Made by a program: the position numbers and the translations under genes
The notes under the pieces: generated by a model
Databases searched by the model: none
Seen by the model: the letters and a program-made list of their open reading frames with translations, nothing else
Told to the model about the DNA's origin: nothing
Virus record (IMG/VR): IMGVR_UViG_2740892369_000044
Length of the DNA stretch: 38,716 nucleotides
Source of the DNA: a virus
Lineage: Duplodnaviria; Heunggongvirae; Uroviricota; Caudoviricetes
Reading direction: 5' to 3' (one strand)
Part shown: positions 32,362 through 34,983 of the stretch, piece by piece
Layout of the letters: each line of letters opens with the position of its first letter
Numbering within the stretch: position 1 is the first letter of the stretch

Positions 32362-34983
32362 ATGACGGTCTCAACCGAAGTTGACCACAACGAATACACC
32401 GGTAACGGTGTTACAACGACATTCCATTATACCTTCAGGATTTTTAAGAAGTCTGATCTGGTAGTCCAGGTTGTAGACCTGAACGATAACATCACTGTTC
32501 TGACGCTAGATACTGACTACACAGTAACCGGCGCAGGTGGGTATGTAGGTGGTAATGTAATACTGGCAACAGCTCTTGCTAATGGTTACCAGATTTCCAT
32601 ATCACGTGAATTGCCGGTTACGCAGGAAACGGATCTCCGTAACCAGGGTAAGTTCTTTGCTGAGGTGCATGAGGATGCGCTTGATAAGTTGACAATGTTG
32701 ATTCAGCAGGTTCGTAGTTGGTTTAGCCTGGCGCTACGTAAGCCGTCATTTGCTGCTAACTATTACGACGCAATGGACAACTATATTCGTAATCTTCGTG
32801 CCCCATCCAGGCCGAAAGACGCAGCAACGAAAGATTATGTTGATATTCTTTCTGGTGCCAGCCTAAGCAGAAGCTTGAGAGTACCTGAATCGTTTATAAA
32901 TGAGTTACCTGATGCGGATGGGAGAAAGAATAAAACACTGAGTTTTGATAATTCTGGATCACCGCTTCTTCTTGATCCTGAAAGTAGTGGGTTATGGGGA
33001 TATTCCCTTATTGATTCGTTTCAGGATGGTGCTTCAATAACAACTAGATTTCAGGCACTTCACTGGAAACGTCCTGATGGAAATGGCGAGTACTACCGTT
33101 GGGATGGATCTTTACCAAAAGATGTTCCTGAGAATTCAACCCCTGAATCAACAGGTGGGGTTTCCCTTGGTGCCTGGGTATCTGTAGGGGATGCATCGTT
33201 GCGGAGCGACCTGATTAGTCAAGAGACAGATAAAGGCTCCTCAATAGTTACATATACCCCTAAATTTAATGATGCCGTCTCGATGTCGGTATATGAAAAA
33301 CTTTCTGTAGATTTGGTGACACTTTCAGACTACGGATTTAAAGTTGGCAACACCGGTTCTCAGAACAAAGCGGCGTTTCAGAAGGCTATTGATGATGCTA
33401 CGTTGCCAACTGAGATTGTTATACCAGAGGGGGTGTTCATTGTTGACCCTGGTATTACGATTAAGAATACTGTCACCATGATACGAGGTGCTGGCGCATA
33501 TCAGTCCAGAATTTTCTCTACGGGTACAGCGGCACCGATAATCACGCAACAAGATGGAGTAATTACGTTCTGCGAGTTCAGGGACTTTGGTCTTGACGGA
33601 AATGGCTACGCAGCTAACGGCATCAGTCTTACTGAAGCCAACCACATTAAAATAGAAAATATTGACGTGGTTAATACTAATAACAACGCAATATTAGTTA
33701 ACGGTTACTCCATTGACATCATTGGGTGCCGATTGTTTCAAAACACCGGTAACGGTATTAATGTTGGTGGCCACTGCAATAATATTAATATAATCAACAA
33801 CCGTATCTATGGTAACGGAGCCGGTGGAGTTTTACTTACGCCAGCTTACGCTGAGGGCGGTATGAGCGTCAGAGTTAATGGCAACGATATAGAGCAAAAT
33901 AAGTTCTACGGACTTTTGGCTTACGGGGTTAAAGGCCTTAACCTTGATGCTAACTATTGGGAACGCAACGGTGAGATTGGTTACCCGTATAGTGTACCTG
34001 AGTCTATTACAGTACGTGCGGATATCCACCTTATCGCGAACAATTTTACATTAATTCCTGACCTTTCAAAAATTAATGATACCGTATCTATTCGCGGGAA
34101 TCAGCAGACCGCGATTGGCTACGCCAGCGCGCTACCTAACCAAGACGGATTTATTTTCACGAACTATGCGAAAAACCTGACGATTGAAAATAATCAGTTA
34201 TTAGACGCATCGAAAGTGAATAATTTATTAGCAATGTACCACAATAATCTTTCGTCCAAAGTTACTGACAGGCTATATCTTGCCAACAACACAGTGAACT
34301 CCATCGGATACGTTGGTAGTTATGACCCGGCGACACAAAACCCTGACACTGCGCATTTAATAGATATTGCGAACAGAGAGTTAACTGCTAACTATCTTGA
34401 TCGAAATATGTTGCTCTGGACTGCTGCATCTGGAACTACAGGAACATTGATAAAAACTCAAAACATCTATGCTGGTAATTATTCATTCTTAGTTACGACA
34501 GGAGATAGAGTTTGGGGACGAACGATAGACCTCAACAAATCACCAGAACTAAAAGGGAAATTTGTATGGTTTGGTGCGTGGGTCAATGACCAGGGATCAG
34601 CGTCAAAACTTATGTTTATAATTAATGGTGCAGGACAAACAGACTCTACAGCACCTTTAGCTGGTAATGGGAAATGGAGCTATGTTAGTTGTGGTGTGTA
34701 TATATACGAAACTGATACAGCTATAAATGTTGGTATAAGAAATTATGGTTCAGGAAATGTACTCATAAACTCACCGTCTCTTTGTGTATATGGAATGCCA
34801 TCAAATGCGTTACAAGTTGAAAAAACAACATTTTATCTTTCGTCAGTACCTACATCCGGTTTCTGGGATATAGGCGAACGCGTTATCAATAGCGCACCTG
34901 CTTCAGGACAACCAAAGGCATGGACATGCAATATTCCAGGTGGTCCCGGTGTTTGCAGTTTCCTTTCTGAGGGGAATTATTAA
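32362..34983 (+). CDS. Tailspike/tail fibre: T7 gp17-like N-terminal anchoring domain fused to a right-handed beta-helix (depolymerase-like) body
   Basis: 873 aa; N-terminus FHYTFRIFKKSDLVVQVV...ITVLTLDTDYTV parallels T7 gp17 FEYLARKFVVVTLIG...KVLTINTDYRF; repeated N/G/I-rich beta-helix rungs (NAILVNGYSIDIIGCRLFQNTGNGINVGGHCNNINIINNRIYGNG). Confidence 0.8.
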   Translation: MTVSTEVDHNEYTGNGVTTTFHYTFRIFKKSDLVVQVVDLNDNITVLTLDTDYTVTGAGGYVGGNVILATALANGYQISISRELPVTQETDLRNQGKFFAEVHEDALDKLTMLIQQVRSWFSLALRKPSFAANYYDAMDNYIRNLRAPSRPKDAATKDYVDILSGASLSRSLRVPESFINELPDADGRKNKTLSFDNSGSPLLLDPESSGLWGYSLIDSFQDGASITTRFQALHWKRPDGNGEYYRWDGSLPKDVPENSTPESTGGVSLGAWVSVGDASLRSDLISQETDKGSSIVTYTPKFNDAVSMSVYEKLSVDLVTLSDYGFKVGNTGSQNKAAFQKAIDDATLPTEIVIPEGVFIVDPGITIKNTVTMIRGAGAYQSRIFSTGTAAPIITQQDGVITFCEFRDFGLDGNGYAANGISLTEANHIKIENIDVVNTNNNAILVNGYSIDIIGCRLFQNTGNGINVGGHCNNINIINNRIYGNGAGGVLLTPAYAEGGMSVRVNGNDIEQNKFYGLLAYGVKGLNLDANYWERNGEIGYPYSVPESITVRADIHLIANNFTLIPDLSKINDTVSIRGNQQTAIGYASALPNQDGFIFTNYAKNLTIENNQLLDASKVNNLLAMYHNNLSSKVTDRLYLANNTVNSIGYVGSYDPATQNPDTAHLIDIANRELTANYLDRNMLLWTAASGTTGTLIKTQNIYAGNYSFLVTTGDRVWGRTIDLNKSPELKGKFVWFGAWVNDQGSASKLMFIINGAGQTDSTAPLAGNGKWSYVSCGVYIYETDTAINVGIRNYGSGNVLINSPSLCVYGMPSNALQVEKTTFYLSSVPTSGFWDIGERVINSAPASGQPKAWTCNIPGGPGVCSFLSEGNY

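Follow-up and report, generated by a model that had tools for sequence, protein, structure and literature searches.

Among the closest described systems to the tailspike analysed here are epsilon15 gp20 and phiV10 gp25, which have the same anchor and the same gene position and likewise leave a slot for serotype-conversion genes between the tailspike gene and the holins. Past aa 161–223, however, their bodies are unrelated to that of the E. coli O26 prophage, and the slot is filled differently: with a polymerase and an inhibitor in epsilon15, with oac in phiV10, and with gtrA and a dead gtrB in the O26 prophage. A copy of the O26 tailspike is already known from strain E2865, where E2865_Prophage_RBP was listed as a predicted Uetakevirus receptor-binding protein (RBP) for O26, with an anchor ending at aa 206, and was described as an O26 RBP gained by horizontal gene transfer (PMC10408124, Virol J 2023, Table S1). 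The O26 assignment and the principle of module swapping are likewise published. That study delineated only the anchor versus the receptor-binding domain (RBD), whereas the present analysis locates the crossovers in two conserved coding blocks and proposes a two-step history; only this fine mapping and this history are new. Another described system is the tailspike of the Lederbergvirus (P22-like) prophage of O26 strains (H19 WP_024017764; RM10386 I3U_RS19900), whose C-terminal region in the RM10386 copy, when carried on CBA120 TSP3, gave O26-specific infection signals (PMC12737597). How, then, does one receptor-binding core come to stand in two unrelated temperate phages?

The window, meaning the whole 38,716-nucleotide stretch of viral DNA that was analysed, contains the open reading frame exactly where the original prediction had placed it:

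32362..34983, plus strand: tailspike coding sequence, 873 aa (WP_000218923.1 in strain 97-3250, I3U_RS21125 in RM10386)

It encodes the tailspike of a Uetakevirus prophage (epsilon15/phiV10 type) in E. coli O26. In O26 genomes including 97-3250, E2865 and RM10386 it is 100% identical, the same protein (100%) is present on hundreds of E. coli contigs, and the E2865 chromosome (AP018808) matches window positions 31500–36400 with 100% DNA identity. Synteny with epsilon15, phiV10, SPN1S and Tyrion covers the integrase, terminase, portal, capsid and tail protein genes, the tailspike, the conversion slot, the two holins, the GH19 endolysin and Rz; the tailspike gene lies 3′ of gp17/gp19-like genes and 5′ of the conversion slot, the holins, the endolysin and Rz, as in the Uetakevirus layout. 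The product would be the single tailspike of a temperate podovirus of this type, integrated in E. coli O26. We consider it probable, with good confidence, that this modular O26 prophage tailspike owes its present form to two recombination steps.

The N-terminal third of the protein is built from the following parts:

32362..32844, plus strand: anchor core, aa 1–161, the Uetakevirus virion-binding domain (beta-sandwich, then long helix), delimited by the phiV10 and TL-2011b nucleotide matches
32845..32985, plus strand: extended anchor/neck, aa 162–208, where the SPN1S, TL-2011b and PAT1 protein matches end
32995..33261, plus strand: Tail_spike_N (TSP1/Gp66-type) domain, aa ~212–300, from Pfam, PDB matches and AF2

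Positions 31909–32844 are 94.6% identical to phiV10, TL-2011b is 89% identical in the anchor at the nucleotide level, and both matches stop at 32844/5. At the protein level, aa 1–208/223 are 67–79% identical to the tailspikes of epsilon15, SPN1S, TL-2011b and Tyrion, and aa 1–129 match D1/D2 of Dpo31 in a PDB sequence search (E 7e-23); in the solved relative Dpo31 D1 a coiled coil comes after a beta-sandwich (PMC13317679). Residues 1–161 (up to ~208) would form a genus-specific anchor fixing the trimer to the tail hub. In a phmmer search with the anchor against 1.84 billion representatives, the best 150 of 30,258 matches are all close relatives, 72–90% identical over aa 1–164 (nearly all 74–90%) and 175–979 aa in total length. 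Many different bodies share the anchor, and these best 150 did not yield a deep alignment.

The original prediction had likened this N-terminus to that of T7 gp17. The conserved anchor and a weak in-register likeness stand, but the anchor is of the Uetakevirus type and falls below the threshold of the Pfam family: PF03906 scores 9.9 bits (E 0.74) against aa 10–82, short of the 25.2-bit cut-off, while in the same profile search T7 gp17 itself scores 248.6 bits and the T7-anchored homologue P0073 58.5 bits. BLASTP against gp17 gives E 0.11, reciprocal HMM matches reach 10–20 bits at best (most are lower), and gp17 is not matched in the PDB sequence search of the tailspike. Foldseek against the PDB finds nothing below E 1 with the AF2 anchor model (aa 1–210, from a 30-sequence alignment), which is poor, with a mean pLDDT of 50. 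An hhalign comparison with PF03906 keeps register for 129 columns, with a score of 25.6 (E 0.0025, probability 12%), against a maximum score of 19.2 in 30 column-shuffled controls. The T7 gp17 N-terminal domain has the same role and position as the anchor, and the weak similarity spans ~130 residues and takes in the D-A-x-x-x-I-x-N...D-A motif at the C-terminal end. These comparisons suggest, only weakly, that the anchor is a remote in-register relative of the gp17 domain, outside the Pfam family. A T7-like phage with a true gp17 anchor does carry a body homologous to the present one, joined at query aa 207 (P0073).

Behind the anchor, aa ~212–300 would constitute a Tail_spike_N neck domain: PF18668 scores 61 bits over aa 239–277, above its gathering threshold of 25 bits, aa 211–299 match 9occ_G and CBA120 TSP1/3/4 in the PDB sequence search, and AF2 pLDDT is 73–85. 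A boundary at about 110 residues, as first proposed, was not found. The junctions lie at aa 161, ~208, ~284 and ~330, and the anchor is separated from the beta-helix by a helical neck and the Tail_spike_N domain, which gives a mosaic of genus anchor (aa 1–161), neck plus Tail_spike_N (162–319), core (~330–845) and an N7-like end (the last ~35 codons). The 3′ part had also been described as more AT-rich. A weak trend of this kind appears when the gene is split at aa 161 (GC 45.8% in aa 1–161 versus 42.0% in the rest, p=0.15; GC3 46.0% versus 35.8%, p=0.02), but it is not significant at the true junction, aa 319/320; composition was dropped as junction evidence, and as an argument for exchange it is weak. 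Every 2622-nt segment of the prophage backbone is richer in GC (minimum 45.6%, mean 49.8%) than the gene as a whole, at 42.6%. No phage record covers at least 80% of the tailspike protein. The only distant full-length homologue (P0040, 68%) is itself mosaic.

The receptor-binding part of the tailspike has been exchanged recently, as had been proposed. The segments that bear on this are:

33349..33381, plus strand: interval of the left crossover in the most recent swap, within the conserved motif N-T-G-S-Q-N-K-A-A-F-Q-K-A-I-D-D-A (aa 330–346)
33382..34874, plus strand: imported receptor-binding core of O26 type (beta-helix and C-terminal domain), defined against the H19/RM10386 P22-like tailspike and a sibling sequence
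34882..34946, plus strand: right crossover interval, in a conserved 3′ block (aa ~841–862)
34947..35031, plus strand: end of the gene, its stop codon and the region of the terminator, of N7 type (P22-like phage), from the N7 match and alignment A1
34989..35012, strand not assigned: hairpin terminator with a 10-bp stem (−16.2 kcal/mol, z −4.75) and a T-run on the minus strand

Over 33382–34874 only 14 of 1493 nucleotides differ from the tailspike of the P22-like prophage of O26 strains (H19/RM10386). Identity to the H19 copy, which the RM10386 copy matches at ~100%, is 98.1% over 33318–34949 and 99.1% between the crossover intervals; at the protein level it is 93% over aa 280–873 (P0041). With this value the protein belongs to the O26-specific RBP subtype as subtypes were defined in PMC10408124, by at least 30% amino acid identity over the RBD among hosts of one serogroup. 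The two tailspikes differ elsewhere: the P22-like one has the P22 head-binding domain (PF09008) in place of the Uetake anchor and Tail_spike_N, its last 34 nt are unlike those of the Uetake copy, and 3′ of it lies an acyltransferase gene where the Uetake copy has a gtr remnant. The P22-like tailspike is present in 105 complete genomes and the Uetake-context type in 32, and many strains carry both prophages, with the two tailspikes ~215 kb apart in RM10386, for example. Some 1.5 kb of near-identical sequence in two genes of one chromosome can mislead short-read assemblers, but that the resemblance is an assembly chimera of two similar prophage genes, or an old and slowly evolving shared domain, is scarcely credible. 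The gene occurs in 32 complete genomes and departs from the P22-like copy at the same 14 sites, and closed genomes contradict a chimera; moreover, the core is 99% identical where the sibling core is at 38–75% and Uetakevirus anchors are at 75–95%, and the breakpoints are sharp.

The sibling, L012, is a metagenomic sequence (one sequence, plus a near-identical duplicate contig) with anchor, scar and lysis genes as in the O26 prophage but with an N7-like core: it is ~100% identical to the window outside the core and 38–75% inside. Its core is 92.6% N7-like, contiguous through the terminator. On the left, the window equals L012 at all informative sites to 33348 and H19 from 33382, and the motif columns at aa 330–346 are invariant in alignment A3. 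On the right, the three-way alignment is identical over the conserved block, and the window follows H19 before the block and L012/N7 after it; phage N7 is 89.4% identical over 34843–35031. Among E. coli complete genomes none has an N7-like core on the Uetake anchor, all 32 of the 32 with the anchor region having the O26-type core.

The N7-like end leads directly into the remains of a conversion cassette:

35023..35031, strand not assigned: 9-bp microhomology junction (ACTTTATAT) between N7-like sequence and gtrB, with N7 homology to 35031 and K-12 yfdH homology from 35023
35016..35123, minus strand: remnant of gtrB with 35 codons and a stop, of which codons 1–34 align with YfdH/GtrB (PGAP pseudogene)
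35120..35482, minus strand: intact gtrA, 120 aa, with an ATGA overlap with the gtrB start (Pfam GtrA_DPMS_TM 51 bits; PHROG 2224)

The gtrB scar that had been noticed beside the tailspike is real. Read on the minus strand from 35123 to 35016, 33 of its 34 aligned residues equal K-12 YfdH, positions 35023–35130 are 99.1% identical to yfdH, PGAP annotates a truncated glycosyltransferase, and the N7-like end is fused to gtrB at codon ~33. As in the P22/SfV-type gtrABC cassette (K-12 CPS-53 yfdGHI), gtrA is intact (82.5% amino acid identity to YfdG) and its stop codon overlaps the start of gtrB; unlike there, only residues 1–34 of GtrB are left and gtrC is missing, so the cassette would be unable to work alone. 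The Uetake-type prophage of ET358 has an intact order in which the tailspike gene faces gtrC, gtrB and gtrA, with a holin gene behind them, and by analogy this may be the ancestral layout. That the N7-like segment brought gtrA and the remains of gtrB with it was considered and is unsupported: N7 diverges from the window at 35032, and elsewhere it holds only a 25-residue gtrA remnant.

Since L012 has the same scar and a different core, two steps are indicated, first an illegitimate capture, which would have cut gtrB short, and later a homologous swap of the core. In the first, an ancestor would have acquired a tailspike body with its terminator from a P22-like source of N7 type, by a crossover in the conserved motif at the beta-helix start and, at the right end, by an illegitimate join at the 9-bp microhomology inside gtrB; the rest of gtrB and gtrC would have been deleted and the O-antigen glucosylation cassette disabled. 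In the second, homologous recombination between the two conserved core-flanking blocks would have replaced ~1.5 kb by the O26-type core from the P22-like prophage of the same O26 strains. The original prediction had taken the scar as a mark of recent exchange, implying that a single replacement brought the present body and the truncated gtrB together. The imported P22-like material does end exactly at the gtrB break, yet a single event is quite unlikely: the last ~35 codons and the terminator are N7-like and not H19-like, H19 similarity ends within the gene at 34949, L012 combines the identical scar with another core, and the donor would already have had to be an H19/N7 hybrid. The scar marks instead the right end of the older N7-like capture, common to L012, while the latest right crossover is intragenic (34882–34946). 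For the phages of one host lineage, the two-step history offers a clean nucleotide-level case of tailspike specificity moving between unrelated temperate phages, and such a capture can destroy adjacent serotype-conversion genes.

By parsimony alone, the swap would have run from the P22-like to the Uetake prophage, because the N7-like 3′ end was kept and the P22-like carriers of the O26-type core are more numerous and more varied. The reverse course, in which the O26-type core originated in a Uetake-type prophage and the P22-like one received a copy, is unlikely. Both prophages co-reside, sequence identity by itself gives no direction, and some P22-like bases in the allele of strain 99_0288 hint that exchange may go both ways; the core in Uetake context, however, is flanked by resident sequence on one side and an N7-type 3′ end on the other, and in L012 these are parts of one contiguous N7-like block, diverged relatives of the core are joined to P22 head-binding domains (P0046, 85%; P0048, 87%) or stand in a siphovirus prophage (P0045, 80%), a second Uetake-type carrier was not found, and the core is in P22-like context in 105 genomes versus 32. 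The 99_0288 allele differs at 19 sites; at 7 of these it agrees with the P22-like copy and at the others it is unique, and as a sign of ongoing gene conversion it is not decisive. Nor is the H19 allele the exact donor: it mismatches the core at 14 positions, and close to either crossover there are several SNPs that only the window has.

It is a tentative thought, possible rather than probable, that in temperate phages of the Uetake and Lederberg types the two core-flanking blocks (the cap motif N-T-G-x-Q-N-K-A-A-F-Q-K-A-I-D-D-A and the final ~30 codons) serve as recombination handles. Prophages residing together in one chromosome might then swap cores through them by gene conversion, and several prophages would in this way remain adapted to the O-antigen of the one host that they share. 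The survey in PMC10408124 states that it found no conserved recombination motifs in prophages of these two types.

The parallel beta-helix predicted for the body is borne out by Pfam Beta_helix PF13229 (aa 386–492, 38.8 bits against a cut-off of 25.9) and by structure comparison. The AF2 body model, confident only at aa ~214–274 and ~314–534 (pLDDT 81–95 in the latter; mean 59.7), matches CBA120 TSP1–4, KP32gp38 and Sf6 TSP in Foldseek at E 4e-13 to 1e-5, with probability 1.0 for CBA120 TSP4/3/1/2, KP32gp38, Depo32 and Sf6 TSP. CBA120 TSP1–4 and other beta-helix tailspike depolymerases share Tail_spike_N and the right-handed beta-helix fold, but are only 10–18% identical to the O26 tailspike in the helix; in the PDB sequence search the core is without a match, hits being limited to Dpo31 (aa 1–129) and Tail_spike_N-bearing tailspikes (aa ~207–346). 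Residues ~320–873 would comprise a right-handed parallel beta-helix and a C-terminal domain; this part is predicted to bind the O26 O-antigen and probably to cleave it. The prophage would offer a predicted O26-binding module on a second, Uetakevirus-type scaffold, for use in STEC O26 detection reagents and in engineered phages or tailocins. Invariant acidic residues in alignment A3 include E405, D452, E511, E534 and D554 (full-length numbering).

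A single ORF at 32362-34983 (plus strand), exactly the coordinates of the original prediction, encodes the 873-aa tailspike, and a Pfam match to Beta_helix (PF13229, 38.8 bits, aa 386-492) confirms the predicted beta-helix body. Pfam also places Tail_spike_N (PF18668, 61 bits) at aa 239-277, and finds no T7 tail-fibre domain in the tailspike at E ≤ 0.1. The protein is a modular O-antigen tailspike, an ordinary and well-understood kind of object, and a published data set already includes it. The new points, incremental ones, are base-level crossovers within two conserved coding blocks, a two-step history linked to gtrB truncation, and the finding of donor-type and recipient prophages in the same chromosomes.

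Region 31500-36400 of the window is 100% identical to E. coli O26 chromosomes, including 97-3250, E2865, RM10386 and 10153, and is carried by 32 of 5426 complete genomes. The gene order (integrase, repressor-like regulator, terminase, portal, capsid, tail and ejection proteins, tailspike, then a short minus-strand cassette, two holins, GH19 endolysin and Rz) is that of epsilon15, phiV10, SPN1S and Tyrion, all Uetakevirus. The final two genes (37646-38716, minus strand), yfgI (DUF5384) and yfgH (glycine-zipper lipoprotein), are bacterial and so put the end of the prophage at around 37430-37640; both genes likewise close the GenBank record of phage TL-2011b. Where the window has yfgI, strain 97-3250 carries a second tyrosine integrase directly after Rz (L001, 9245-10501), which suggests tandem prophages. 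Two O26 strains, 03_3469 (H53) and F2_407_2_2 (H55), have the stretch from tailspike to gtrA split by IS600/IS3-family insertions.

Modelled with AF2, aa 205-873 give a confident structure for Tail_spike_N and the initial half of the helix (pLDDT 81-95 over aa ~314-534) and a poor one further on; in Foldseek the body groups with the phage tailspike depolymerases CBA120 TSP4, TSP3, TSP1 and TSP2, KP32gp38, Depo32 and Sf6. Cleavage of the O-antigen is predicted. O26 specificity is suggested by literature on homologous and identical proteins. The C-terminal region of RM10386 I3U_RS19900, grafted in a CBA120 chimera, gave O26-specific signals (PMC12737597); that locus tag belongs to the P22-like copy, with a core that shares 98-99% identity with the window's. 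The E2865 prophage receptor-binding protein, which is the same gene as the window tailspike, has been listed as a Uetakevirus O26 receptor-binding protein with its anchor ending at aa 206 and horizontal transfer to a Lederbergvirus counterpart (PMC10408124).

How far is the virion-binding anchor gp17-like, as had been proposed? Its similarity to T7 gp17 is weak but in register, both by BLASTP (E 0.11, aa 12-53 against 11-50) and against PF03906 (9.9 bits, below the 25.2 cut-off). When profiles of 61 Uetake-anchor and 23 T7-anchor sequences were compared with hhalign, 129 columns aligned (12-160 against 11-154) with a score of 25.6, E 0.0025 and probability 12%, the highest score among 30 column-shuffled controls being 19.2. 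Reciprocal HMM searches between the two groups reached 10-20 bits at best, most being lower, and the AF2 anchor model was too poor for Foldseek to yield fold evidence on gp17. Dpo31 of the marine podovirus Carin-1, a protein of solved structure, aligns with residues 1-129 (E 7e-23); its D1 domain forms a beta-sandwich close to the virion, with a coiled coil after it (PMC13317679). The anchor is probably a very distant gp17 relative; it has the same role, yet lies outside the gp17 family as defined.

Protein and DNA comparisons yielded nested module boundaries, and site-by-site comparison located the two crossovers:

Genus anchor, aa 1-161 (to nt 32844), plus strand: 94.6% nucleotide identity to phiV10 and 89% to TL-2011b
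Left crossover, 33349-33381, plus strand: inside the conserved motif NTGSQNKAAFQKAIDDA capping the beta-helix
Right crossover, 34882-34946, plus strand: conserved last ~30 codons

Nucleotide matches to SPN1S and epsilon15 end at that base too, nt 32844. Many relatives remain similar to aa 208, and Tyrion and Citrobacter proteins to aa 284. The anchor-to-core segment (32845-33348) is itself composite: aa 162-284 are most like Uetake-type proteins of Tyrion and Citrobacter (79-86%), and aa 280-360 most like P0045 (90-95%), from a siphovirus-type Citrobacter prophage at argW. Homologues from aa ~207-219 onward bear other N-termini, among them P0045 and P0073; the latter, from a T7-like phage, has a true T7 gp17 anchor (PF03906, 58.5 bits). 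Proteins with a P22 head-binding domain, such as P0041 (93%), match from aa 280 onward. The same receptor-binding body family was seen on a true gp17 anchor in a T7-like lytic phage (L017, 3155-5572) and in a siphovirus-type prophage at argW/yfdC of Citrobacter sedlakii (L018, 8001-10175), where an intact gtrC-gtrB-gtrA set comes next on the opposite strand. Among 1.84 billion cluster representatives, phmmer found the window's anchor in 30,258 proteins (E ≤ 0.001), of which the top 150 share 72-90% identity (nearly all 74-90%) over aa 1-164 and range from 175 to 979 aa in total length, marking the anchor as a widely reused adaptor.

The predicted recent exchange of the receptor-binding part is borne out. 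Positions 33318-34949 share 98.1% identity with the tailspike gene that a P22-like prophage, lying at argW in the O26:H11 strain H19, carries, and between the crossover intervals only 14 of 1493 positions differ. L012, a metagenomic sibling prophage, matches the window at about 100% over 32452-33345 and 97.7% over 34843-37500, with only 38-75% identity between these blocks; its core region matches the P22-like phage N7 at 92.6% identity, unbroken through stop codon and terminator. Of the complete genomes, 105 have the H19-type gene, 11368, RM10386 and 97-3250 among them; in many the window's prophage is present as well, and a distance of ~215 kb separates the two tailspike genes in RM10386. 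In strain 99_0288 (L020, 677-3298), the tailspike differs from the window's (32362-34983) at 19 sites, and at 7 of these it has the same base as the co-resident P22-like copy, reflecting either a different donor allele or continuing gene conversion between both prophages.

Composition is a weak guide. At 42.6% GC the whole gene lies below every equal-length backbone window (mean 49.8%, minimum 45.6%), and the gtr remnant region is AT-rich too. The original prediction had the 3' part as apparently richer in AT, and a small gradient does exist, significant in GC3 (46.0% in the anchor vs 35.8% in the rest, p = 0.02) but not in GC (45.8% vs 42.0%, p = 0.15) nor for a split at aa 319/320. The junctions would have been missed by composition alone.

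Directly 3' of the tailspike lies an intact minus-strand gtrA (Pfam GtrA_DPMS_TM; PHROG 2224), whose stop is overlapped through ATGA by a 35-codon minus-strand frame identical at 33 of 34 residues to the start of K-12 YfdH/GtrB and annotated by PGAP as a truncated glycosyltransferase. Beyond 34946 the window tracks N7, not H19, through a hairpin with a 10-bp stem (34989-35012) up to 35031; homology to K-12 yfdH starts at 35023 (99.1% over 35023-35130). The two overlap at ACTTTATAT (35023-35031), where 8 of 9 positions match yfdH. The scar is real: an illegitimate join at microhomology, with gtrB beyond codon ~33 and gtrC lost. L012 carries the identical join, so the scar is older than the O26-core swap with which it had been associated. 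The most economical history, whose direction and order we infer, has two steps: an N7-type body would first have been captured with its terminator, truncating gtrB, and the core would then have been exchanged, through homologous recombination, for the O26-type allele from a P22-like prophage.

The tailspike-holin slot holds a differing opposite-strand serotype-conversion module in each relative: polymerase and inhibitor in epsilon15, oac in phiV10, an acyltransferase in Tyrion, and complete gtrA-gtrB-gtrC in the ET358 prophage. Immediately 5' of gtrA there is a sigma-70-like promoter (35506-35535, minus strand). Because the T-run of the hairpin that separates tailspike and gtrB remnant (34989-35012) is on the minus strand, the gtrA transcript should terminate there better than the tailspike transcript. 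Phage N7 retains a GtrA fragment of only 25 residues (L002, 6481-6555, minus strand) and SPN1S only a gtr fragment with a 36-residue match (L003, 10503-10610, minus strand); decayed gtr cassettes beside tailspikes thus seem common.
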